Of a stretch of 64,000 bases of DNA, positions 2,314-63,198 are shown piece by piece. Below the pieces are notes generated by a model, which was not told where the DNA came from, did no database searches, and worked only from the letters and a program-made list of their open reading frames with translations. Each line of letters opens with the position of its first letter. The first letter of the stretch is position 1. This DNA is from Chloroflexota bacterium (GTDB lineage: Bacteria > Chloroflexota > Dehalococcoidia > Lucifugimonadales > UBA3495), in the NCBI GenBank assembly GCA_028874075.1, contig JAPPLU010000037.1:37318-101317 (forward strand), in the 5' to 3' direction. Both the position numbers and the translations under genes were made by a program.

Positions 2314-4029
2314 ATGACATCCCCGGAAAGCACTTCGGAAAGCACTTCAACTGACTTCATCCGGGCCATCGTGCAAGATGACCTGGAATCCAACAAGTAT
2401 GACGGAAGGGTGGTAACCCGCTTTCCCCCCGAACCCAACGGTTACCTTCACATCGGTCACGCCAAGTCAATCTGTCTTAACTTCGGCGTGGCTTCGGAAT
2501 ATGATGGTGGCGTGTGCCACTTGCGCTTCGATGACACTAACCCGTTGCGTGAGGACATAGAGTACATTAATTCCATCCAGGAGGACGTACGCTGGCTGGG
2601 CTTCGATTGGGGGTCTCACCTTTACTATGCTTCGGACTATTTCGACGCGCTCTACAGCTTTGCCGAGCAGCTTATTCTGGACGGCCGGGCCTACGTGGAC
2701 AGCCTGTCTGCGGACGAAATACGTGATTATCGTGGTACGCTGACGGAGCCCGGGCGGGAAAGCCCTTACCGTAACCGGTCGGCGGAGGAAAACCTGGACC
2801 TGTTTCGGCGGATGAGGGACGGCGAATTTGAGGACGGCGCTCATGTACTGAGGACCAAGATAGACATGGAGTCGCCCAACCTGAACATGCGCGATCCCAC
2901 GATCTACCGGATCAGGCGTGCCACCCACCATCGTACAGGCGACAAATGGTGCATCTATCCGATGTACGACTACGCCCATGCTCTGTCCGATTCAATTGAA
3001 AACATCACCCATTCCCTATGTACCCTGGAGTTTGAGGACCACCGCCCCCTGTATGACTGGACGCTGGAAGCGCTGGACGTCTACCGTTCGCAGCAAATCG
3101 AGTTTGCCCGACTCAACCTGACCAATACGGTAATGAGTAAGCGCCGCTTGCTGCAGCTGGTGGAGGGTGGCTACGTGTCCGGTTGGGACGATCCCAGGAT
3201 GCCAACCATCAGCGGGCTGCGTCGTCGGGGCTATACTCCGGAGGCCATACGCACCTTTTGCGAGCACGTGGGCATTTCCAAACGGGACACGGTGGTGAAC
3301 ATGGCCCTGCTGGAGCACTGCATACGTGAAGACCTGAATCTGCACGCGCCCAGGGTTATGGCGGTTTTGAATCCTCTGAAAGTGGTCATCGACAATTTCC
3401 CTGAAGGCGAGGTTCTTGAGTTCGACGCTGTGAACAACCCGGAGGACCCGTCAATGGGGTCGCGCAAGGTGCCCTTTTCCCGTGAGGTCTATATTGAAAG
3501 GGATGATTTCCGCGAGGACCCTCCGTCGCGTTTCTTCCGCTTGGCCCCGGGCCGGGAGGTCCGGCTGCGATATGCCTGCTATATCACGTGCCAGGAAGTG
3601 GTGAAAGACCCAGAGACAGGCGAGGTAATAGAACTTCACTGCACCTATGATCCGGAGTCGGTAGGCGGTTCGACGCCTGACGGAAGGCGAGTACGGGGCA
3701 CCCTGCACTGGGTTTCAGCCCGCCACGCCCTGCAGGCTGAAGTGCGCCTGTACGATTACCTTTTGCGGGATGCGGACGAAGGGGATGAAGACAGCCGGGA
3801 CTTTATCTCGCTGCTAAACCCGGACTCGCTTCAGACTCTTATTGATTGCAAGGTGGAGCCGGGATTGGCAGACGCGGAGTTGGGAAGCCGGTACCAATTC
3901 GAGCGGCAGGGTTATTTTTGTGTTGACACCAGGGATTCCGGACCGGGGGCTCCGGTATTTAACCGTACCGTTTCTTTACGGGATTCCTGGGCCAGGATTG
4001 AGCAATCGCAGTCCCGCGGGGGAAGCTAA
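2314..4029 (+). CDS. glnS: glutamine--tRNA ligase
   Basis: Class I HIGH motif ([14 protein letters not shown]) and KMSKS variant (VMSKRRL). Length of about 570 aa and a C-terminal anticodon-binding beta-barrel region are typical of GlnRS. Confidence 0.92.
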
Positions 4030-19659: not shown

Positions 19660-20058
19660 TCATAGAACATCTGAGAGTTTGGCTTCAGGATTTATCAGAC
19701 GACGTATTCCTTCCCTCAGGGTTGGCGAGTGAAAGTTCATCAGCAGGCCCGCCGGCCATCCACCTAACTTAAGGTAAGTCAATACCTGTGCGGAGTGGAC
19801 CGGCAGCAGATGTTTCACAGCTTTTATTTCAACAACGACGTTCTTCTCAACCAAAAGATCTAACCTATACCCGGATTCCAGCATCAATCCCTTATAGCTG
19901 ACGGGCAAAGCCAGTTGACGCTGAAAGTTTATTTTCTGTAACTCCAACTCTCGGCATAGACACTCTTCTCAGGCGGATTCCAGCAAACCGGGCCCCAAGG
20001 TACGATGTACTTCTATAGCTGAACCGATTATAGCCTGTGTAATGGCGTTGACTTCCAT
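19660..20058 (-). pseudogene. GxxExxY-family (PD-(D/E)xK-like) gene interrupted by an in-frame TGA
   Basis: ATG 20058 gives [29 protein letters not shown]-[TGA 19971..19969][18 protein letters not shown]..., in the same frame as listed ORF 19660..19947. The stop replaces the Tyr of the family's G-L-L-E-S-x-Y motif. Confidence 0.7.
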
Positions 20059-20110
20059 GAGTCCCTGTGAAACTCCGTTTCTTTGAGCCTCTTTGTGGAG
20101 GAGAATTGAC

Positions 20111-20941
20111 CTACAGACCTCCCAGCAGGTCCGCTTCGGCGGGTGCATCCTTGGGGGAGACGAGGGTGTAGTATTCGGTGCCCATGATTTCCCGCATCAT
20201 TTCCTGGGGCAACAGGGCGAAGGGGCCGTCCGGGTTAATCTGGGTGCGGTGGCAGTTCAGGGAGTCGATCTTGGTGTCAACGTACTCGCTGATATCCAGA
20301 ACCGTCGTCACTTCATCGTCCGGTGTTCCCACCTTGTCGATGTCCTGGCTGGCGAAGGGTGGGCTGATATCCATTTCCACCATTTTCCGCCACATACGCT
20401 GGAAGTTGCTGCGGGGGAAACAGACGAAATAGAGATAAGATCCTATCATTTCCGGATCATTTGCCGCCAACGCATAGGCGTCCGAAGTGTGGATGCACAT
20501 GGCCTTGTGGTCCGGGTGACCATACCCGCCCGACGGATCGTGGGTTACCACTACATTGGGTCTGGTCTCCTTCATAATTTCTACCAGCGCGCTTACTACC
20601 ACCCTAGGATCGGCCTGGTGCAAGGAGTTGGGATGCTCGTTATCTTCTGTACCCTCCATTCCCGAGTCGCGGTAGTTGAGGAAGCGGATGTCAGTTACGC
20701 CGGTTACAGCCATGGCGTCTATCAATTCCTGCTGCCTAACCTGAGCCAGGGTCTCCGGCGTGGCCAGCGACGGGTCGCTGATTTCTCCAACGTCGCCATT
20801 GGTGCCACAGACCAGGGTTACCTGGGCACCGCGGGCGACCAGCATGGCCAGCGTGCCGCCGCTGCCAAACCCCTCATCGTCGGGGTGGGCGAAGGAAAAT
20901 AACAGGCGCAGGTGGGTCAGGTCTTTAAGGGGAGTTGTCAT
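20111..20941 (-). CDS. PIG-L/LmbE-family deacetylase
   Basis: [16 protein letters not shown] zinc-binding motif and a later HPDH. Confidence 0.85.
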
Positions 20942-33401: not shown

Positions 33402-34763
33402 ATGACCAAGGCCGTAGTTATAGCCGGTGTCCGCAGCGGCGTTGGCAAAACCACTATAGCCACAGGAATCATGGGCGCACTTACTCGTCGCGGCCATCAG
33501 GTACAACCCTTCAAGGCCGGCCCCGACTATATCGACCCCTCCTACCACAACCTGGCATGCGGAGTACCGTCCCGTAACCTGGACACCTGGCTGTTGCCTC
33601 ACCCCACGGTTACTGAACTGTTTCGCCGGGCTGGTGATGACGACAAGGTCTGCGTGGTAGAAGGCGTGATGGGCGTATTTGACGGCCATTCCAGCCTGAC
33701 AGAGGAAGGGTCCACAGCCCAATTGGCCAAGCTTTTGAACGCCCCCGTCATTCTGGTAGTCGACGCCGCCAAGGTGGCCCGCAGCGTGGCGGCCGAGGTC
33801 CTGGGCTACCAGACCTTTGACCCTTCCCTGCGCATAGCCGGTGTGATCCTGAATGGAGTCGGCGGCCTCCGGCACATGGAATTCTGTCAGCCACAGATAG
33901 AGGCTACCACCGGCTTGCCGGTGCTGGGCTACTTGCCAAGACGAGAGGCGTTCGTCCAGCCCGAACGGCATTTGGGTCTAATTCCCACGGTAGAAGGCAC
34001 GGTTGTCCAGGAATGGTATGACGCCCTTGTGGCCCAGGTGGAAGAAACCATCGACCTGGACCGAATTCTGAAAATATCCGGCACCGCAAGCCCGCCAAGT
34101 GGAGACCCGCAGGTCTATCCCTCAGAACCGCAACCGGTAGCGTCCCGCATCGCAATAGCCCAGGACAAGGCCTTCAGCTTTTATTACCAGGACTCTTTGG
34201 ACCTCTTACAAGCCTGGGGGGCAGAACTGGCGCCGTTCAGCCCATTAGCCGATCAAGCTCTCCCCGAAGGCGTGGGCGGCGTTTACATCGGCGGCGGATT
34301 CCCCGAGATGTTCGCCAGGGAGTTATCGGAAAACCGTCCAATGCTGGATTCAATGCGGGACGCTTTGGCCAGGAATATTCCGGTGTATGCCGAATGCGGT
34401 GGCCTGATGTACCTGGGCCGCAGTCTTTCCGATCTGGATGGCGCAGAGTACCCAATGGTGGGGGCTCTTCCAGTCATAACTTCGATGAGTAACCGAAGGC
34501 TGACGCTGGGTTACCGGGAAGTGGAGGCTTGCGAGGAAACGCCGATTCTGAAACGGGGACAACGAGTGCGCGGGCATGAATTTCACTGGTCTGTGCTGAC
34601 GGAACAACCCACTGCCGAACAGGCTGTCTACCGCGTAGTGGACCAGGAAAATCGCCTTGAAGGTTTCAGGGTCGGCAGCGTCTGGGCGTCCTATATTCAC
34701 GTGCATCTGGGAAGCGCGCCAGGCCTGGCTCGCAAGTTTGTCGAAACCTGCGTGTTAGAATAG
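33402..34763 (+). CDS. cbiA: cobyrinate a,c-diamide synthase
   Basis: [20 protein letters not shown]-loop and a C-terminal glutamine amidotransferase with [11 protein letters not shown]. Confidence 0.9.
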
Positions 34764-34836
34764 GCTTACCTGCTTGGTCCGGTTCACCGAGGAACCGATT
34801 GAGGGGCAGGCAAACCAGCCGGAGGATAGTTGCAGA

Positions 34837-35409
34837 ATGAGCACAAACCAGGAGACCCAGGAAGGGCCCCAGTCGGTAAAGGGTCCCCGCATTAACAAGG
34901 GCCTGGTTATTGTCAACACGGGTAACGGCAAGGGCAAGACCACGGCAGCGATGGGGGTTCTGTTCCGCGCCTGGGGCCGCGACATGCGGGTCATTATGCT
35001 GCAATTCATCAAACATACCACTGCCAACTTCGGAGAGCAGCGGGCGGCTCAGAAAATTGGCGTCTCCATGCGGGCCATGGGCGACGGATTTACCTGGCGA
35101 TCCCGAGACCTGGATCAGAGCGCCGACTTGGCCCGAGCGTTGTGGGAAGACGCCAAGGAAGTGCTGGCGTCGGAAGATTACGACGTGGTTGTGCTGGATG
35201 AATTCACCTACCCTATGCACTATGGCTGGATAGAAACGGAAGAAGTTCTTGAGGCACTCCGGAATCGCCCGGAAATGGTTCACGTAATAATCACCGGCCG
35301 GCACGCTCCCGATGCCCTGGTTGACTACGCGGACCTGGTGACGGAGATGAACGTAGTCAAGCATCCCTACCAGAGCGGCATAAAAGCCCAACCAGGCATT
35401 GAGTTTTAG
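34837..35409 (+). CDS. cobO: cob(I)yrinic acid a,c-diamide adenosyltransferase (CobO/BtuR type)
   Basis: [25 protein letters not shown] and LDEFTYPM. I prefer ATG 34837 over the listed TTG 34774. Confidence 0.9.
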
Positions 35410-35467
35410 CTGGCCGGCTTTCCCCGTCGGCGGGGCGCCTGGCCGCAATTGACTTCAGGAGACTTCT

Positions 35468-36544
35468 ATGACCATCTCACCACTGGTTGACACTACCGTC
35501 GACAGCATAACCCCCCTGAATGAGGCGGCCATGGCTGCGGCCCGGGCCAGGCAAGATACATTGACCAAACCCCTGGGCAGCCTGGGTCGGCTGGAAGACC
35601 TGTCTGTCATGCTGGCCGGCATGTTTGGCGATCCGGTACCCCGCATCAACCGAAAGTCGGTAATCCTGGCTGCCGCAGACCACGGCGTTGTGGCCGAGGG
35701 GGTCAGCGCTTATCCCCAGGAAGTAACCCCTCAAATGGTGTATAACTTCCTGCGGGGCGGCGCCGGAATTAATGTGCTGGCCCGCCATGCCGGAGCCGAT
35801 ATTGTAATCCTGGATGCGGGTGTGGCCTCGGACCTGGAGCCTAACCCCCTGCTGCGATCGGTTAAGGTAGCTTACGGCACGGCCAACATGGCGGTGGGCC
35901 CGGCCATGACCCGTGAGCAGGCCATTCGCTGCCTGGAAATAGGTATCGATGCTGCCAGAGAGCAGATTGGGGAAGGAGCGGACCTGATTGCCTGCGGCGA
36001 CATGGGAATTGGCAATACCACTGCATCCAGCGCAATAACGTCCGTTGTCACAGGCGCCGATCCGTCGACGACGACAGGCCGGGGCACTGGCCTGGACGAT
36101 CCGGGCCTGGCCCATAAGGTTGAAGTGATCCGGAGGGCTATCGATGTGAACCAACCGGATCGGGCCGATGGCCTTGATGTCCTAACCAAAGTGGGTGGGC
36201 TGGAAATAGGGGTACTGGCCGGCGCCATGCTGGGAACGGCGGCCAGCAACCGGCCAGTGGTCGTGGACGGCTTCATTTCGGGAGCAGCAGCCCTGATAGC
36301 CTGGCTCATTTCCCCGACGGCGCGGGACTACTTCATCGCCGCCCATCAGTCGGTGGAGCCGGGCCATCGAGTGGGCCTGGATGCCATGGGCCTTACGCCC
36401 CTGCTGGACATGAACATGCGCCTGGGCGAAGGCACCGGCGCCGCGCTGGCCATGCACCTGATAGAAGCGGCGTCCCTCTGCCTGGCAGAGATGGCAACCT
36501 TTGCCGAGGCGGGCGTTTCGGAACGCAGCGATGATGAGGAGTAG
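35468..36544 (+). CDS. cobT: nicotinate-nucleotide--dimethylbenzimidazole phosphoribosyltransferase
   Basis: LTKPLGSLGRLE, GDMGIGNTTASSA and a C-terminal MRLGEGTGAA. Confidence 0.9.
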   Translation: MTISPLVDTTVDSITPLNEAAMAAARARQDTLTKPLGSLGRLEDLSVMLAGMFGDPVPRINRKSVILAAADHGVVAEGVSAYPQEVTPQMVYNFLRGGAGINVLARHAGADIVILDAGVASDLEPNPLLRSVKVAYGTANMAVGPAMTREQAIRCLEIGIDAAREQIGEGADLIACGDMGIGNTTASSAITSVVTGADPSTTTGRGTGLDDPGLAHKVEVIRRAIDVNQPDRADGLDVLTKVGGLEIGVLAGAMLGTAASNRPVVVDGFISGAAALIAWLISPTARDYFIAAHQSVEPGHRVGLDAMGLTPLLDMNMRLGEGTGAALAMHLIEAASLCLAEMATFAEAGVSERSDDEE

Positions 36545-36646
36545 CCGACAAGTAAAGACCGGGCACACTTTCGATGGTGCGCATTGCCCAATTCTCTTGC
36601 AGTCCTCTTGCTTTCAGCACAACGGTTGGACCTAGGGTAGAAACAG

Positions 36647-37447
36647 TTGGCCTCCCTACTGGCTGCCCTGAGCTTCTTGACCATTTTCCCCTCGCCAAAG
36701 AGCGCGGATCTTTCCCAGCAGGTTGTCAGCAACTCCCGCGCCTGGTTTCCGCTGGTGGGCTTGCTTATCGGCATCCTGATGGTGGGGCTGGAATGGTCGT
36801 TGGGATATCTCTTCCCCCCGTACCTGACTGCAGCTCTGCTGGTGGTCTTACTGGTAATCGTTAATAGGGCGCTGCACCTGGACGGCTTGATGGATTCCTG
36901 CGACGGGCTCTTCGGCGGAAATACACCGGAGCGTCGTAGGGAGATTATGCGGGATTCCAGCGTGGGAGCTTTTGCGGTGGCGGGCGCCGGCAGCGTCCTT
37001 CTTCTCAAGTACGGCGCGCTCTTGTCTCTGCTGTCGGTGAGCGTTCCGGGCAAGGAGGCGGCGCTACTGGTTTTTCCGGTCGTCTCCCGGTATGCCATGG
37101 TGCTCCAGTTGATGGTGTATAACTATGTTCGCACGCCCGGCCTGGGGTCTCCCTTTCACGGCAGAGACGCCCGGATTCCCTCCATCGTGGCGGCGATTAT
37201 AGCGGCCCTGGCTGTCGGGATATTGGGAGGCCTGGGCGGAATCTTGATACTGGCGGCAATATGCCTGTTTGCCCTGGCTCTGGGGCAGGTGGCCGTCAGG
37301 TTAATTGGGGGATTGACGGGCGACATATACGGGGCCACAAACGAGCTATCGGAAGTGGCCGCTCTACTAGGCGCAGTTGCGCTGTTGCCCCTGGGATTGC
37401 TTTCTCCCGTAACCCACCAGGTGAGTACTTATCTTGGGGCCTTCTGA
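36647..37447 (+). CDS. cobS: adenosylcobinamide-GDP ribazoletransferase (cobalamin synthase)
   Basis: ALSFLTIFP, HLDGLMDSCDG and GLTGDIYGA in a polytopic membrane protein. Confidence 0.85.
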   Translation: MASLLAALSFLTIFPSPKSADLSQQVVSNSRAWFPLVGLLIGILMVGLEWSLGYLFPPYLTAALLVVLLVIVNRALHLDGLMDSCDGLFGGNTPERRREIMRDSSVGAFAVAGAGSVLLLKYGALLSLLSVSVPGKEAALLVFPVVSRYAMVLQLMVYNYVRTPGLGSPFHGRDARIPSIVAAIIAALAVGILGGLGGILILAAICLFALALGQVAVRLIGGLTGDIYGATNELSEVAALLGAVALLPLGLLSPVTHQVSTYLGAF

Positions 37448-38405
37448 CTTGCCCAGTTACCTGGCCGGCATCCCTCTTGATGTGGGGGTTGTCTTGCTGG
37501 CCATTTTGCTGGACCTAGTCGGCAGGGAATTTCCGGCGCGGCTGCATCCTACGGTCTGGATAGGCAATACCATCCGCCTGGCGGAACAAGCAGCTCCCCG
37601 CACCAGGGTTGGAGGATTGACTGTCGGAGCCCTGATGGCGTTGCTAATTCCCGCCGTCTGGGCGGTGGCAGCCTGGCTGGCAGCGTGGGGCCTGCGGGAA
37701 CTGCACCCACTGGCATACCTGCTGGGTGGCGCGATATTGTTGAAATCCACCTTTGCGGTGGGGATGCTGCACCGGGTCGCTGCCAAGACCCGTTCGCTGG
37801 TTGTGGCTGGGGATATGCCGGCCCTTAGGGAAAATATGCGGTCGTTGGTCAGCCGGGATGTATCGGCGATGGGTTCTGAGCAGGCCGTCGCCGCCACGGT
37901 AGAGTCAGTCTCCGAGAATACGACCGACAGTTTTGTCGGCCCCTGGCTGGCTTTTGCCTTTTTTGGTCTTCCGGGAGCCTTTGCCTACCGCGCCATCAAT
38001 ACGCTGGACAGTATGATAGGCTATCGTGGCGAGTACGAATTCCTTGGCAAGGTGGCGGCCAGGCTGGACGACCTGGTGAACCTGGCGCCGGCGCGACTGA
38101 CTGCCCTGCTTTTGGCTTTGGGAAGCGTCCTGCTGCCTGGGCAGCGGGCCGCCGAGGCGTGGCGCATAATGTGGCGCGATCACTCCCTGACAGCCAGTCC
38201 CAACGCGGGCTGGACAATGAGCTGTATGGCCGGGGCTTTGGGCGTGGCGTTGGAGAAGGAAGGTCATTACCGTTTAGGCGACGCCAGCCGTCCCCTGGAA
38301 GCAGCTGACATCACCCGCGCCGTACATTCCATGTATTTCATTGCGGGAGTGGCGGCGGTGATGGTGGTGGCCCTGATCATCGTAAAGGAACGGTTCCTGG
38401 GGTGA
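37434..38405 (+). CDS. cbiB: adenosylcobinamide-phosphate synthase
   Basis: HPTVWIGN, SENTTDSFVGPW..FG..GAFAYRAINTLDSMIGY and PNAGW. The start is uncertain and the listed ORF overlaps the cobS end. Confidence 0.88.
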   Translation: MGPSDLPSYLAGIPLDVGVVLLAILLDLVGREFPARLHPTVWIGNTIRLAEQAAPRTRVGGLTVGALMALLIPAVWAVAAWLAAWGLRELHPLAYLLGGAILLKSTFAVGMLHRVAAKTRSLVVAGDMPALRENMRSLVSRDVSAMGSEQAVAATVESVSENTTDSFVGPWLAFAFFGLPGAFAYRAINTLDSMIGYRGEYEFLGKVAARLDDLVNLAPARLTALLLALGSVLLPGQRAAEAWRIMWRDHSLTASPNAGWTMSCMAGALGVALEKEGHYRLGDASRPLEAADITRAVHSMYFIAGVAAVMVVALIIVKERFLG

Positions 38406-39517
38406 AGACTGAACCCAAACCTGCCCAACAATCCAGCGGCCGACCGGTACACGGCGGTATCCGGCCGGCTCAATTGCGTACACTCGGGCTGGACTCGTCG
38501 GATGTGCTGGATTTCAGCGCCAGCGTGAGTCCCCTCGGCCCACCTAAGGGACTCTGGGAGGCTTTGCAGGGAGTTGATCTCACGGCCTACCCGGACCCGG
38601 AATGCCTGGAGCTGAAGGAGGCGCTGGCAGAGCTTCACGGGTTAGATGTAGACCATGTCCTTGTGGGAAACGGTTCTACCGAGCTTATACATTTGCTGGC
38701 CCGGTCATATTTGAACCAACCCATCGGTGGGGTCGAACGCTCCGTGCTGACATTTACGCCCACCTACGGCGAATATTCGGGCGCCGGCCTGCTGGAAGGG
38801 GCAAAAATCCGGGAGGTTGCAGCGTGTCGCGAAGCAGGGTTTGCCTGGGACCTGGAACGGGCCGCCGAGTTAATTGCCACCCGGAAACCGGCCCTGGCGT
38901 TCCTATGCAACCCCAACAATCCCACCGGCGTATACCTGGGCAGTGAGGATGTTGCGGGTCTAGTCCTGGCAGCCAAGGGATCGGGAACCCTTTTGGTATT
39001 GGACGAAGCCTATGTAAATTTTGTTGAGGACCGGTGGGATGCCACGTCTTTGCTGGAGGGAAGCGCCAGGAAGAGTGTCGTTCTGCTTCGGTCAATGACA
39101 AAGGACTATGCACTGACCGGCTTGCGGCTTGGTTATGCCCTTGCCTCGCCGGAGGTTGTGTCCAGGCTGGGCAGGCTGCAGCCGGACTGGAGCGTCAACA
39201 GCCTGGCACAAATTGGCGGACTGTACGCATTGGCCGACACCGGCTACCTGCCCGGCGCGCGCCGGGCAGTTGGGGAGGCGAAGGACTTTCTGTTGGAAAG
39301 CTTCAAACAAATGGGATTCCATCCGCTACCGTCTGTTGCCAATTATCTCCTGGTGGAGGTTGGGGATGGAGCCGTGTGGCGGGAAAAACTGATGCGCCGC
39401 GGGTTATTTGTTCGTGATTGCGCTTCCTTTGGGCTGCCAGACTGCATTCGCATAGGGATCAGGGCCATGCCGGACTGCCGGAGACTGGTTGGCGCCATGA
39501 TGGCGGAGGTGGATTGA
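38402..39517 (+). CDS. cobD: threonine-phosphate decarboxylase (class I/II aminotransferase fold)
   Basis: PLP-lysine region SMTKDYALTGLRLGY and NPNNPTG. Its GTG start overlaps the cbiB stop (GTGA), and the cob operon context supports the call. Confidence 0.75.
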   Translation: MKTEPKPAQQSSGRPVHGGIRPAQLRTLGLDSSDVLDFSASVSPLGPPKGLWEALQGVDLTAYPDPECLELKEALAELHGLDVDHVLVGNGSTELIHLLARSYLNQPIGGVERSVLTFTPTYGEYSGAGLLEGAKIREVAACREAGFAWDLERAAELIATRKPALAFLCNPNNPTGVYLGSEDVAGLVLAAKGSGTLLVLDEAYVNFVEDRWDATSLLEGSARKSVVLLRSMTKDYALTGLRLGYALASPEVVSRLGRLQPDWSVNSLAQIGGLYALADTGYLPGARRAVGEAKDFLLESFKQMGFHPLPSVANYLLVEVGDGAVWREKLMRRGLFVRDCASFGLPDCIRIGIRAMPDCRRLVGAMMAEVD

Positions 39518-39604
39518 CGGCAAGGGTGGCCAGGCTTTCCGTTGATTTCTCAATTCAGGCAGGCTTGCACAAGTTGACAGACCGAAACTGAGGAGAACAC
39601 TTCC

Positions 39605-40219
39605 ATGGGCAACATCTATATCGTACGTCACGGCGAAACCATGTGGAACGCCGAGGGTCGCATTCAGGGGCACACCGACGTTGGACTGACCGGGAGGGGT
39701 AAGGAACAGGCGCGAGCAACGGCGCGCCGGCTGGCGGACATACACTTTAATGTGGCTTACTCAAGCGATATGAGCCGCACCCGGGACACCGCCGTGATCA
39801 TCCTGGGCGAAAGGGAAACTCCACTCCATTCGGTGCCGGAGCTGCGGGAGTACAATAAGGGCGTCTTTGAAGGGTTGACCCCGGAGGAATACCGGCAGCG
39901 ATATCCAGACCTGTTCCAGGCCTCTCTGGTCAATGACCTCGATTTCGCACCCCCGGGGGGCGAGACTATCCGCCAGTGCCAGGCCCGTATGACCAGTTTT
40001 GCAGGCATGCTAAAGGACAAACACCTCGAAGAAGATGTGCTGATCGTTGGCCACGGCGGTTCACTGCGTAGTGGCATCGTCTCCCTGCTTGGACTGCCGC
40101 TGGAAGCGAACTGGAAGTTTGTGATGCACAACTGTGCCCTGTCCGTCATTCGGTCCTATCCCGATAATGCGGTAATGCACCTTTACAACGACACGTCCCA
40201 CCTGGCGGGGGTTCAATAA
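39605..40219 (+). CDS. cobC: histidine-phosphatase family, alpha-ribazole phosphatase-like
   Basis: IYIVRHGETMWNAEGRIQGHTD (RHG motif) and a later GHGG, in the cob operon context. Confidence 0.75.
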   Translation: MGNIYIVRHGETMWNAEGRIQGHTDVGLTGRGKEQARATARRLADIHFNVAYSSDMSRTRDTAVIILGERETPLHSVPELREYNKGVFEGLTPEEYRQRYPDLFQASLVNDLDFAPPGGETIRQCQARMTSFAGMLKDKHLEEDVLIVGHGGSLRSGIVSLLGLPLEANWKFVMHNCALSVIRSYPDNAVMHLYNDTSHLAGVQ

Positions 40220-40247
40220 CGCCGGGCGAGTTTGCTCCACAAGAAAG

Positions 40248-41834
40248 TTGAATGCAATGAATCAACATAACACACCGTTAGGCAAGGTCTTAATGGTCCA
40301 GGGAACTGCTTCCCACGTGGGGAAGAGTGTCCTGGTGTCTGCCCTGTGCCGCATCTTCCGCCAGGACGGGTTTCGGGTCGCGCCGTTCAAGGCCCAGAAC
40401 ATGTCAAACAACTCCTACGTTACCCGGGATGGTGGGGAAATAGGCCGTGCCCAGGCGGTGCAGGCGGAGGCCGCAGGTGTAGAAGCACGGGTGGAAATGA
40501 ATCCGGTTTTGCTGAAACCCGAGGCCGACCATATCGCCCAGGTAGTCCGAATGGGGCGGCCAATGGTTTCCGCCAGGGTGAAGGACTACTTCGGCCTAAA
40601 GGCGCAGCTGTGGGAGTCAGTCAGTTCATCCCTGGACACGCTCCGCAGCGAGTATGACATTGTCATCATCGAAGGGGCCGGCAGCCCCGCGGAAATCAAC
40701 CTCAAGGCCACCGAAATTGTCAACATGAGGGTGGCGCTGCACGCAAGCGCCCCGGTGCTGCTCTGCGGTGACATTGACCGGGGTGGGGTTTTCGCGGCAT
40801 TGGTGGGTACGCTGGAACTGCTGGAACCCCGAGAACGGGAAGCGATCAAGGGCTTCATCATCAACAAATTCAGGGGCGATGCCAGCCTGTTGACTGACGG
40901 CCTGACCATGCTGGAAGACCGCACCGGTATTCCGGTGGCCGGCGTTGTGCACCATTACCGGGAAATCCATATTCCTGAAGAGGACTCGGTGGCGCTGGAT
41001 ATCCCCATGAGGTCAGGCGACAGCGGCCAAGGCGCCACGCTGGATATAGCAGTAATCCAGCTGCCGCACATTTCCAACTTCGATGACTTTGACCCCCTGG
41101 CCCGGGAGCCCGGAGTCAATTTGCGTTACGTCAGCAACGCCGGCGAACTGGGCGATCCTGACCTGGTTATCTTGCCGGGCAGCAAGACAACCATCCCCGA
41201 CCTGGCCTGGATGAACTCCCAGGGATTAGGCCGCGCCGTTCAGGATCTCCACAATAGGGGTGCGGCCATTGTTGGAATCTGTGGTGGTTACCAGATGCTG
41301 GGACACCGATTGTACGATCCCGACGGTATCGAGTCACCCATCCCGGAAATGGATGGACTTGGGATTCTGCCCCTGTCCACCGTTTTTGCCGGCACGAAGG
41401 AGACTCACCGGATTCGCGGAGAGGTAGTTGAGGCCACCGGACTATTGAAGTCCGCCGGTGGAGCATCCTTGACCGGTTACGAAATTCACATGGGCCGTAC
41501 CACCGGCGAAGGTGTAGCGTTGCCGTTTTTGATCCATGACCGGACTGACGTTGCGGTGACTCCGGAAACTGCATTCGATGGTGCGATGGATGAGTCTGGA
41601 AGCGTTTTAGGGACATACATTCACGGTTTGTTTCACAATGTGCAACTGCGGCGCGCCATACTGGAAGAACTGGCTGGCCGGAATGGTAGGGCGCTCCCCG
41701 GAGTCGCCGAATTGGAAGCGATGGACACTGAGTTCGACAAGCTGGCCGACTGGGTGCGGGGCAGCCTGGACATGGACTTAATCTACGACATTACGGGGCT
41801 GGACCGAAATTTCGACCGGATCGGGCTCCCGTAG
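40248..41834 (+). CDS. cobQ: cobyric acid synthase
   Basis: LMVQGTASHVGKSVLVSALCR, IEGAGSPAEINL and a C-terminal GATase with GICGGYQMLG. The start is TTG 40248 or ATG 40257. Confidence 0.9.
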   Translation: MNAMNQHNTPLGKVLMVQGTASHVGKSVLVSALCRIFRQDGFRVAPFKAQNMSNNSYVTRDGGEIGRAQAVQAEAAGVEARVEMNPVLLKPEADHIAQVVRMGRPMVSARVKDYFGLKAQLWESVSSSLDTLRSEYDIVIIEGAGSPAEINLKATEIVNMRVALHASAPVLLCGDIDRGGVFAALVGTLELLEPREREAIKGFIINKFRGDASLLTDGLTMLEDRTGIPVAGVVHHYREIHIPEEDSVALDIPMRSGDSGQGATLDIAVIQLPHISNFDDFDPLAREPGVNLRYVSNAGELGDPDLVILPGSKTTIPDLAWMNSQGLGRAVQDLHNRGAAIVGICGGYQMLGHRLYDPDGIESPIPEMDGLGILPLSTVFAGTKETHRIRGEVVEATGLLKSAGGASLTGYEIHMGRTTGEGVALPFLIHDRTDVAVTPETAFDGAMDESGSVLGTYIHGLFHNVQLRRAILEELAGRNGRALPGVAELEAMDTEFDKLADWVRGSLDMDLIYDITGLDRNFDRIGLP

Positions 41835-61287: not shown

Positions 61288-61791
61288 CTACCTATTAGGC
61301 GCTGGGTAGTCTTCCAGGTTGAAGGGCTGCCCGTTCAGGTTGATGGTGTCCTCAAACAGCTCAGGCCGGCCGAAAGACTGGCGGGCAAAGCAGCCGTTAC
61401 GGGCATTACGCATCACGCCGGCCACCCGTTCCGGAGAATCACCGGACTCCACGTCGTAGTGAATGGCTATCTTGTCTGCCTTGGCCTGGATAGTCTGCCG
61501 GAGCACCGAGCCTTCGGCTGAGACCGTGTAACCGATATTGGCCTTGATCTGGCCCATGTCCACTTTCATCATTTGAGCGTACCGCTCAAGCTGGGTCATT
61601 TCTCAAAACAGGATGGCTACCGCAAAGTAGGTCATGGGTGAGGGCGCCGTGTTATCGCCCATGGGGGGACCCTCGTCGCACATGATGGTGAATCCCCGGG
61701 CCTCCGCCTGTTTCTTCATGCCGTCCAGGGTCATGGCATCGCCCTGGATGGTGAATGACCTGGAAAAGCGGTCATTGTCCGGTGTGGTCAT
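61288..61791 (-). CDS. OsmC/Ohr-family peroxiredoxin-like protein with in-frame TGA (candidate selenocysteine at codon 63)
   Basis: ATG 61791 with an AGGAG RBS. The product reads ...CDEGPPMGDNTAPSPMTYFAVAILF-[TGA 61605..61603]-EMTQLERYAQMM...NARNGCFARQSF. Listed ORFs 61603..62049 and 61288..61599 are in the same frame. The TGA sits where the first conserved Cys of the OsmC family lies. Confidence 0.65.
61573..61589 (-). promoter_or_regulatory. SECIS-like hairpin downstream of the OsmC-like TGA
   Basis: Minus strand: UGA, 13 nt, then UUGAGCG-GUA-CGCUCAA (7 perfect bp, G-U-A loop). Confidence 0.5.
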
Positions 61792-62021
61792 GGCGTTCTC
61801 CTTTCCGGTTGAATTGGGGGGAAGTATAGCACGGGGTGGGCGCATTGTTGTGGTAGTACGATCATCCTTTGGCATATAGCCGAGGAAGAGGGCAGCATTG
61901 CCTGCTTTAGCCCCTGAGTCAGGCGACAGTCGTAAATTTGGGACCTCTATTGCTGTACAATGTGGGCGATTGCATTCTGCCAGCCATTCCGCAGGACGAG
62001 ACGAACCCACAGGAGGACGAT

Positions 62022-62408
62022 ATGCCCATAATTGACCATTCCCAGGCACCCGAGGTTCCGTGGCGGCCCGGTTACCGCAAGTGGGATGTTGCTGGCCACG
62101 AGCAAGGGGTTACGAGCACATTCAGCATAAATACCGCCGAACCAGGGGCCGGCGCTCCCCTTCACACCCACACCATTGATGAGCTGATTGTGATAGTGGA
62201 GGGTACCCTGGAGGTAAGCATGGATGGTGAAACGCAAACCGTAGGGCCCAACCACACCGTGGTCATTCCGCCTGGAGCCGAGCACGGCTTCCGGGTTACC
62301 GGCAGCGATACAGCGCACCTGTTGGTCTTTTTCCCAGCGCTGAATCCCTATTCCGAGGAACATACCCACTACCTGGAGGGGGCGCGGCCTGCTTCCGTAG
62401 GTGACTGA
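62022..62408 (+). CDS. cupin-domain protein
   Basis: GAGAPLHTHTIDELIVIVEGTLEV...PPGAEHGF (cupin motifs 1 and 2). ATG 62022 is preceded by AGGAGG. Confidence 0.8.
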   Translation: MPIIDHSQAPEVPWRPGYRKWDVAGHEQGVTSTFSINTAEPGAGAPLHTHTIDELIVIVEGTLEVSMDGETQTVGPNHTVVIPPGAEHGFRVTGSDTAHLLVFFPALNPYSEEHTHYLEGARPASVGD

Positions 62409-62489
62409 AGGAGAGATTATCCGGACTTCGCTTTGGGGTAGCTCGCCTGGGGCTTTCATTTCAATTGTGTTCGATGGGAGGAGCAGCGT

Positions 62490-63050
62490 ATGACCTGGAT
62501 CAGACAGGAAGACGTGGGAATGCCTGGCATCATCAGTTCAATGTCCATAAACCCGAAAATGATGGAAGCGGTGCGAAACCTGAACCAGGCCGTCAGTTTC
62601 GGCGCATCGGAGTTGACGCGGGTCCAGGAAGAGTCCATAGCCGTAGCCGTTTCGGTGATGAACCGTTGCCGCTATTGAGCATCCGCCCACGGGGGGTTCC
62701 TCCGTCAACACTCCGACGACCCGGAATATGCCAGTCACATACTGCACGACTACACCACCGCCGACCTGGACCCACAGACCCGAGGAATGCTGGATTTTGC
62801 CGTTAAACTGACCAGGCAACCGACGGAAATGAGGGAATCAGACGTTCTTCAACTGCGGGAACTGGGCCTGACTGACGAGCAGATACTGTCGGTCGTGGCG
62901 ATTACCTGCCTCTTCAACTTTATGAACCGGCTGGCCGACGGCCTGGGTGTGGACATTGAAGCCGACCGGCAACAGGCAATGGACCGCTGGGTTACCGGCC
63001 CGGCCCGCGACCAGGACTGGTTGTGGGCGTTCAAAGAGCAGAGGGTTTAG
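62490..63050 (+). CDS. AhpD/carboxymuconolactone-decarboxylase-family peroxidase-related protein with in-frame TGA (candidate selenocysteine at codon 63, C-R-Y-U motif)
   Basis: ATG 62490 with a GGGAGGAG RBS. The product reads ...IAVAVSVMNRCRY-[TGA 62676..62678]-ASAHGGFLRQHSDDPE...LDFAVKLTRQP...FNFMNRLADGLGV. Listed ORFs 62490..62678 and 62787..63050 are in the same frame with no other stop between them. The family motif is N.C.YC...H. Confidence 0.65.
62689..62705 (+). promoter_or_regulatory. SECIS-like hairpin downstream of the AhpD-like TGA
   Basis: UGA, 10 nt, then ACGGGGG-GUU-CCUCCGU (7 bp including one G.U, G-U-U loop). Confidence 0.5.
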
Positions 63051-63168
63051 CTACCTTAGGCAAAAGGCCTTTAACGTCAACAGGCCTTTATTTGCAGCCT
63101 CGAGAATTCACTCAGAATGAACGTGGCCGCAAGTCAATGAGACTGGGTCAAAAGCCCCGATAAACTTG

Positions 63169-63198
63169 GGGCAGGCACTAAGCCTGCCCTTTTCTCTT
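63169..63198 (+). terminator. intrinsic terminator after the AhpD-like gene
   Basis: 8-bp stem gggcaggc / gcctgccc with loop actaa, followed by TTTTCTCTT. Confidence 0.65.

Follow-up and report, generated by a model that had tools for sequence, protein, structure and literature searches.

In a 64,000-nucleotide stretch of a Chloroflexota contig (JAPPLU010000037.1; the whole stretch is referred to here as the window), a gene at 62490..63050 on the forward strand is interrupted by an in-frame TGA. Judging from its sequence, we read this locus, with a probability of roughly 0.9, as a genuine selenocysteine (Sec)-decoding gene for an AhpD-like thiol/selenol oxidoreductase of the TIGR01926 / COG2128 family in a marine or sponge-associated member of the Dehalococcoidia. 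An earlier note on this DNA had named the gene a candidate CxxU selenoprotein, and the proposal is supported by a family match that runs over the TGA, by the presence of TGA at the same codon in 46/46 orthologues and by the freezing of synonymous sites in a hairpin shortly downstream.

A single coding frame across the TGA

The interval 62490..63050 forms one reading frame of 186 codons with a single internal stop, the TGA at 62676-62678 (codon 63), and ends with a TAG at 63048-63050. The two open reading frames (ORFs) at 62490..62678 and 62787..63050 lie in one frame, and the intervening 108 nucleotides (nt), the ‘spacer’ up to the ATG at 62787, are free of stops. Re-reading and re-translating the sequence confirmed what the earlier note had reported on these points, namely the shared frame, the TGA as its sole internal stop and the read-through product. 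A Shine-Dalgarno-like GGAGG, read from the sequence, is found at 62477..62481 (+), 8 nt 5' of the ATG at 62490, and the N-terminus MTWIRQ is kept among close orthologues.

Profile searches of the 186-residue read-through product, run with U written as C, returned TIGR01926 ‘peroxidase-related enzyme’ at 129.7 bits (cut-off 81.8), with residues 6-154 corresponding to model positions 23-173 of 178 and the match unbroken over the TGA and the spacer. The Pfam CMD domain PF02627 (46.9 bits against a cut-off of 23; residues 22-79) and the AhpD core TIGR00778 (ahpD_dom; 43.5 bits against 27.8; residues 41-79) were also recovered. The scores for canonical AhpD of the M. tuberculosis type (TIGR00777; 15.9 versus 191.95 bits), with which only the active-site helices (residues 41-80) align, and for NF041238 AhpD_rel_CFYUT (58.2 versus 175 bits) stayed below the cut-offs. 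The family to which the gene had been assigned from the letters alone is therefore the one that the TIGR01926 and PF02627 matches across the TGA return.

Cys-type homologues in the PDB (3c1l, 2pfx and 6k40) can be aligned along some 150 residues (E = 1e-27 to 6e-23), and the segment N-R-C-R-Y-[UGA]-A-S-A-H-G aligns on N-H-C-Y-Y-C-L-T-A-H-G of 3c1l. As the earlier note had claimed, the UGA stands where the PDB homologues (3c1l, 2pfx) and alphaproteobacterial homologues (C-x-Y-C) have the second Cys of CxxC; other CxxC-type homologues among loci L052-L080 likewise have Cys at this position. The proton relay described for AhpD comprises Glu118/Cys130/His132/Cys133/His137 in M. tuberculosis AhpD and Glu36/Cys48/Tyr50/Cys51/His55 in PA0269 (PMC3141380). 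The window protein presents Glu48/Cys60/Tyr62/Sec63/His67 as its version of this Glu / Cys / His-or-Tyr / Cys / His arrangement, with the same 12-2-1-4 spacing as both of these proteins and with His67 equivalent to His137 and His55. On the forward strand, the corresponding codons lie at 62631..62633 (Glu48, 12 positions before Cys60), 62667..62669 (Cys60, TGC, the first residue of CxxU), 62676..62678 (UGA, the second position of the CxxC-type motif) and 62688..62690 (His67, the histidine of CxxUxxxH). Glu48, Cys60 and the UGA are each invariant in 47/47 orthologues, position 62 holds either Tyr or Phe, and 46/47 retain His67.

These orthologues come from a scan that took one genome per species and returned 78 loci, on contigs from many different studies. 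The closest locus (L004, OZ219949.1, ‘MAG: Dehalococcoidia bacterium’, where MAG stands for metagenome-assembled genome) is 99% identical; the other loci of the top 46 belong to Dehalococcoidia, SAR202 or Chloroflexota MAGs, many of them from sponge or seawater, with 55-94% amino acid identity. TGA occupies the homologous codon in all 46 Dehalococcoidia orthologues (L004-L049, 55-99% amino acid identity), hence in 47/47 with the window. Of the TGA- and Cys-containing orthologues that the earlier note had asked for, those with TGA are the rule in the Dehalococcoidia; Cys was seen in homologues from alphaproteobacteria and the PDB. TGA is found once more, in the context C-[HY]-Y-TGA, in five further loci (L062, L064, L065, L067 and L068, at ~3180-3240 in each) from MAGs of Actinomycetes, Acidimicrobiia, Acidobacteriota and Thermoanaerobaculia, so that a predicted Sec form of the TIGR01926 family is present across several phyla.

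More distant relatives within the class look different. The Dehalococcoidia paralogues L050, L051 and L070 have Gly (GGG or GGT) at the codon. They belong to a paralogous Dehalococcoidia clade of 46-55% identity in which the first Cys is kept and the Sec position is occupied by Gly, Glu, Ala, Ser or Asn, and whose other members are the protein-database matches P0003-P0005, P0008, P0009, P0011, P0014, P0018, P0038, P0045, P0062, P0079, P0082, P0101 and P0105. Among the recovered loci and protein-database matches there is no Cys-type orthologue within the Dehalococcoidia, the nearest non-Sec relatives being those with Gly, Glu, Ala, Ser or Asn. By sequence comparison this absence seems unusual, as Sec proteins normally have Cys homologues nearby; a class holding only Sec forms and decayed Gly/Glu/Ala/Ser/Asn paralogues would, if true, follow an unusual Sec-or-nothing evolutionary pattern.

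Of the 120 best matches in the protein database, about 100 are fragments of 102-132 residues that hold the post-UGA part only (range P0006-P0120), and the few full-length matches have Gly, Glu, Ala, Ser or Asn at position 63. Two singletons, P0001 (L082 767-814) and P0002 (L083 339-386), have TGG (Trp) and TTA (Leu) instead, each one substitution from TGA; both come from single low-coverage metagenome contigs of the same sample. We considered whether the W and L forms were gene calls made under an alternative code and ruled this out, since the DNA has genuine TGG and TTA codons, which may reflect recent Sec loss or sequencing errors. Separately, the gene call P0073 (208 residues) extends from the stretch after the UGA in one AhpD-like copy into the stretch before the UGA in a second. 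Because this call joins two copies, some relatives appear to carry two tandem AhpD-like selenoprotein genes.

Were the gene dead, or the TGA a sequencing or assembly error, the stop would have replaced a former Cys codon, and TGC or TGT is indeed one substitution from TGA; the TGG and TTA contigs show that single-base variants occur. Yet 46 species-level genomes, all independent and with identities as low as 55%, have TGA at the same codon, the downstream hairpin is conserved and purifying selection acts equally on the parts before and after the TGA. One contaminated assembly as the source is excluded by the many different studies from which the contigs stem. We regard a dead gene or an error as next to impossible.

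To measure the selection just mentioned, the 47 sequences were aligned by codon and pairwise per-site differences were taken at each codon position within the close clade. For positions 1/2/3 the values were 0.086 / 0.049 / 0.402 in the N-terminal part (codons 1-62), 0.080 / 0.029 / 0.396 in the spacer (codons 64-99, hairpin excluded) and 0.147 / 0.082 / 0.420 in the C-terminal part (codons 100-180). Purifying selection on the protein is alike before and after the TGA, spacer included. The spacer had been described beforehand as protein-like and consistent with the family, a view that the third-position excess in codons 64-99 and the TIGR01926 match both bear out.

The same data bear on whether the TGA is a true stop, ending a 62-residue peptide with the remainder untranslated or made from an internal start. 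Gene callers do cut the locus in this manner, into 62 + 102 residues in three contigs (including L001 9749-10309 and L003 9750-10309), as in the window, and into 62 + 102-126 residues over the public gene calls as a whole. Elsewhere in this lineage TGA also serves as a normal stop: 28 of the 74 long open frames (at least 200 codons) of the window, counted in a six-frame scan rather than among curated genes, close with it, as does the AhpD-like gene itself in 9/47 orthologues. Against termination, no conserved restart codon 3' of the TGA exists across the 47 orthologues, because the first in-frame ATG, GTG or TTG varies in position, lying 2, 16, 17, 22, 30, 37, 42, 45 or 51 codons on depending on the orthologue. 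In the window the distance is 37 codons, which include His67 and would be left untranslated, yet they evolve as coding sequence. Moreover, each fragment would lack half of a single AhpD-like domain that the TIGR01926 match covers continuously (residues 6-154), and the stop coincides exactly with the position of a catalytic Cys. Given the coding constraint, the lack of a conserved restart and the use of TGA as a normal stop, we hold it very unlikely that the gene is dead or split or that the code is reassigned, and attach only a very small probability to termination at codon 63.

The hairpin downstream of the TGA

Ten nt after the UGA starts a hairpin (62689..62705, +) with the arms ACGGGGG and CCUCCGU around a GUU loop, forming seven pairs including one G.U. 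Its position and pairing, on re-reading, are exactly those given in the earlier note. The distance from the UGA to the loop is 17 nt; the bSECISearch model for bacterial selenocysteine insertion sequence (SECIS) elements reportedly allows 16-37 nt.

The hairpin lies inside the coding sequence, where it encodes H-G-G-F-L-R, and the codons CAC-GGA-GGG-TTC-CTC-CGT are nearly frozen over the 47 genes: Gly69 is GGG in 46/46, Phe70 TTC in 45/45, Leu71 CTC in 46/47 and Arg72 CGT in 41/47. The same amino acids vary in codon elsewhere in the gene, as seen for Arg61 (CGC/CGT/CGG = 18/10/17) and for Leu93 (five codons). Normalised synonymous entropy over codons 67-72 was 0.116, compared to a mean of 0.684 at 70 other conserved codons (Mann-Whitney p = 4e-5), and these six codons are the lowest-entropy 6-codon window of the gene. 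Conservation here acts at the level of the RNA.

Pairing is kept as well. Across 47 distinct sequences, 98.2% of the cells in stem columns 14-20 x 24-30 are paired, versus 45-60% when the partner is slid. Variants that preserve a pair comprise an A-U to G.U change in nine sequences, the window among them, and a G-C to G.U change that occurs once; two double-sided compensatory changes were found, A-U to U-A in L045 and G-C to A-U in L082, whose stem is retained. The first loop base is G in 48/49 sequences, the exception being L083, which has A there and TTA in place of the TGA. In the Gly-type paralogues L050, L051 and L070, for which the DNA was examined, neither the hairpin nor the GGFL peptide is present. 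The earlier note had staked its proposal on conservation of the hairpin in TGA-bearing orthologues; it is conserved there and absent from the non-Sec paralogues. The joint absence of hairpin and GGFL from the Gly-type paralogues suggests that the RNA element constrains the HGGFLR peptide and not the reverse. The independent Sec forms in other phyla (L062, L064, L065, L067 and L068) have different stem-loops of their own, placed at similar distances and capped by loops that are GGUCU or of the GGG type.

Several points nevertheless weigh against reading the gene as Sec-decoding, and a number of them concern the hairpin. Folded as a single sequence, the window hairpin is no stabler than dinucleotide shuffles (z = 0.04 and z = -0.39), and in the folding that gave z = -0.39 the G-rich variant of the window adopts, at minimum energy, a different pairing. 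As it does no better than shuffles, single-sequence folding is unusable as evidence here, and the hairpin appears meaningful only through the comparison of orthologues. Its support is heavy on conservation and light on covariation, with the two double-sided changes only, and it overlaps the conserved peptide HGGFLR, so that part of the nucleotide conservation is protein-level. An Rfam gathering scan of the window matched nothing at the hairpin, a cobalamin riboswitch being the sole match. As to the decoding apparatus, no tRNA-Sec was found in the 64-kb window, in which ARAGORN found no tRNA gene whatever, and Pfam detected no SelA, SelB or SelD among its 20 largest ORFs, which encode tRNA synthetases, hydantoinases, cobalamin-biosynthesis enzymes and similar proteins. 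An AlphaFold model of the TGG-bearing orthologue P0001, built on a 22-row alignment, was of low confidence and uninformative (predicted local distance difference test, pLDDT, 50.5; predicted template modelling score, pTM, 0.39). Finally, selenium incorporation and enzyme activity are predictions from sequence.

The sparse covariation, the highly conserved peptide and the unremarkable single-sequence stability would all be expected if the hairpin were a by-product of protein or codon-usage constraint on H-G-G-F-L-R rather than a SECIS. This explanation does not account for a synonymous choice that is frozen only at the hairpin (Leu71, Gly69, Arg72) while Arg61 and Leu93 vary freely, nor for observed variants that preserve pairing (G.U, A-U to U-A, G-C to A-U), nor for Gly-type paralogues that are without both the hairpin and GGFL. 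We therefore consider a by-product improbable and predict that the hairpin is a bacterial SECIS, with the position and the G-containing small loop expected of a SelB-binding element; such elements are described as stem-loops close after the UGA with a G-containing small apical loop (PMC1088965).

Decoding, neighbouring genes and other features of the window

The lineage offers positive signs of Sec decoding. In the genome of SAR202 cluster bacterium bin22, which carries the orthologue L016 (88% identical), SelA (COG1921) is counted twice, SelB (COG3276) once and SelD (COG0709) once in Table S4 of PMC5649159, whose columns we matched to the header by hand count. BSepDB places two Dehalococcoidia MAGs, with 49 and 46 selenoproteins, among the selenoprotein-richest bacteria (PMC13326102), and both appear in our locus list as L051 and L070. 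From the bin22 table, the two BSepDB MAGs and a second Sec gene in the window, we infer that selABCD is present in the host genome.

These signs also bear on whether the UGA instead specifies a standard amino acid (Trp, Gly or Cys), either because the code is reassigned or through near-cognate read-through independent of a SECIS. Sequence cannot by itself identify the inserted residue, and one orthologue-like contig (L082) has TGG while retaining the hairpin. Reassignment is contradicted by the 28/74 long frames and 9/47 orthologues that end in TGA; homologues have a redox-active Cys at this position, the chemistry of which only Sec or Cys would preserve; the position and G-containing small loop of the hairpin fit a SelB-binding element (PMC1088965); and the lineage has SelA, SelB, SelD and many selenoproteins. 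Insertion of a standard amino acid is, in our view, highly improbable.

Reading codon 63 (UGA) as Sec, we would expect, from established knowledge of bacterial Sec decoding, that SelB-GTP-Sec-tRNA(Sec) binds the stem-loop within the coding sequence and, competing with release factor 2, brings Sec to the ribosome. Sec63 would replace the second Cys of the CxxC motif and, with Cys60 as its partner, would run a Cys60-Sec63 selenenylsulfide cycle aided by Glu48, Tyr62 and His67. We propose this cycle on account of the homology to M. tuberculosis AhpD, PA0269 and DR1765. Electrons from it could go to a partner peroxidase, or straight to peroxides, in oxidative-stress defence.

A window-wide scan for ORF-TGA-ORF arrangements gave 121 candidates, mostly spurious, of which only the AhpD-like gene and an OsmC-like gene are convincing. 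The latter, an OsmC-related selenoprotein gene at 61288..61791 on the reverse strand, lies two genes away and has an in-frame TGA at 61603-61605 (codon 63) in the motif F-U-E-M-T; its product reads MTTPDN...YFAVAILF-[TGA]-EMTQLERY...PAPNR. With U written as C, the product scores 140 bits with NF041052 OsmC_like_Se (cut-off 95) and 47.2 bits with Pfam OsmC, a match that spans its TGA. A 7-bp hairpin with a GUA loop (UUGAGCG-GUA-CGCUCAA, 61573-61589, -) starts 13 nt after its UGA, and the TGA is kept in 22/22 loci that carry the gene. As in the NF041052 family (‘OsmC-like protein, UxxT’), the predicted Sec stands at the peroxidatic Cys position, in U-E-M-T; UxxT is the motif reported for OsmC-like selenoproteins in the Sargasso Sea (PMC1088965). 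This neighbour is no part of the AhpD-like finding; we take it as a sign that Sec is used and as a candidate redox partner.

The neighbours of the AhpD-like gene are a cupin gene, the OsmC-like gene, a metallo-beta-lactamase-fold gene and an ABC ATPase gene. The Cupin_2 gene (62019..62408, +; PF07883, 57.7 bits) lies between the two selenoprotein genes and is syntenic in the close clade only. Likewise, the order OsmC-like(-)/cupin(+)/AhpD-like(+)/metallo-beta-lactamase-fold(-) is kept only in the close clade (at least 80% identity). Synteny conserved beyond this clade was considered and rejected: clustering of the neighbourhoods of L025-L049 gave no consistent partner, in an analysis made noisy by GC-rich spurious ORFs. 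No association with ahpC was seen, there being no AhpC/Prx gene in the last 4 kb of the window. As distant orthologues have different neighbours, the linkage is weak evidence for a functional pair.

By analogy, the two selenoproteins could form a dedicated hydroperoxide-detoxification relay in this sponge/marine SAR202-like Dehalococcoidia clade, in which the AhpD-like selenol/thiol would regenerate the OsmC-like selenoperoxidase. The model would be the AhpD/OsmC pair of C. glutamicum, the OsmC of which is regenerated via AhpD, as reported in a review (PMC8945050). A pairing of peroxidase and reductase is on this ground a reasonable idea; the dedicated relay is speculative and, in our view, rather unlikely to hold.

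On the flanks of the AhpD-like gene, a terminator-like hairpin with a T-run is found at 62430-62453 (+), in the gap that separates the stop of the cupin gene (62408) from the start of the AhpD-like gene (62490), and another at 63168..63190 (+), 3' of the gene; both are consensus matches only. Given the hairpin between the cupin and AhpD-like genes, the AhpD-like gene may be a transcription unit of its own.

Elsewhere in the window, the cobalamin riboswitch (RF00174, 32353-32553, +, 113.7 bits) lies ~850 nt upstream of a same-strand ORF run at 33402-41834. This run has genes of the cobalamin-biosynthesis type, among them CobB/CobQ-like amidotransferases at 33402-34763 and 40248-41834, together with a DBI_PRT (CobT-like) gene at 35468-36544 and an aminotransferase gene at 38402-39517. 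An ORF at ~19660..20148 (-), which we take to resemble GxxExxY (PD-(D/E)XK-like) proteins, also has an in-frame TGA, at 19969-19971; this probably reflects a pseudogene or an artefact of the frame and not a codon for Sec.

Relation to known selenoproteins

The finding leaves current understanding unchanged, as AhpD-like CxxU proteins have been known since 2005 and the Dehalococcoidia are already listed as selenoprotein-rich. Three features of the gene are mildly unusual: the class has no Cys-type orthologue among the relatives recovered, mis-annotation is widespread and a second selenoprotein gene is adjacent. On a practical matter, these Dehalococcoidia selenoproteins, a large and well-conserved group, sit in databases as ‘hypothetical proteins’ in truncated form, and because of this widespread mis-annotation antioxidant capacity and selenium demand would be undercounted in SAR202 and in sponge symbionts. 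In addition, the gene offers a clear case of a SECIS within a coding sequence, in which the RNA constraint is visible as frozen synonymous sites, and could possibly serve as a benchmark.

The ‘AhpD-like protein’ (COG2128, CxxU) was described in 2005 by Zhang, Fomenko & Gladyshev as a new selenoprotein family of the Sargasso Sea, with 27 sequences and a predicted SECIS (PMC1088965). In the Global Ocean Sampling (GOS) selenoproteome, the family ranked fourth in abundance, represented by 299 sequences with Sec and 902 homologues with Cys (Zhang & Gladyshev 2008, PMC2398784). Between them, these two papers use the names ‘AhpD-like protein’ and ‘AhpD-like 1’. It is tabulated as ‘AhpD-like protein, TIGR01926, CxxU’ in reviews of 2022 (PMC9312934) and 2026 (PMC13188914) and is an example family in BSepDB (PMC13326102).

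Other relatives are more distant. NF041238 AhpD_rel_CFYUT (‘hypothetical protein 1’ of the Sargasso Sea) is also a CxxU selenoprotein of the AhpD superfamily and gives a weak partial match, but it is a different family, with a model of 357 positions of which only the C-terminal half aligns with the window protein. M. tuberculosis AhpD and P. aeruginosa PA0269 have the five-residue relay spacing and the all-helical CMD/AhpD core in common with the window protein. This protein is not an equivalog of M. tuberculosis AhpD, however: there is no adjacent ahpC, Tyr stands in place of His132, as in PA0269, and the predicted Sec in place of Cys133. The Cys-type TIGR01926 structures, Mlr4105 (3c1l), 2pfx, 2prr, 2oyo and DR1765 (6k40), are alignable over about 150 residues and have N-x-C-x-Y-C-x-x-A-H-G; they differ in having Cys for Sec and no SECIS, at an identity of about 35-40%. 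For one of them, DR1765 of D. radiodurans, deletion sensitises cells to H2O2 and the CxxC cysteines matter for complementation (reviewed in PMC8945050).

The closest likeness is to the AhpD-like CxxU family itself. The window gene has in common with it the HMM (hidden Markov model) family, the motif, the predicted Sec at the second position, the marine origin and a stem-loop with a G in its small loop after the UGA. Nothing essential is different. In every feature of sequence by which the family is recognised, the window gene would therefore be one of its members, possibly one already catalogued, in the version of a SAR202-like Dehalococcoidia lineage from sponge or marine MAGs.

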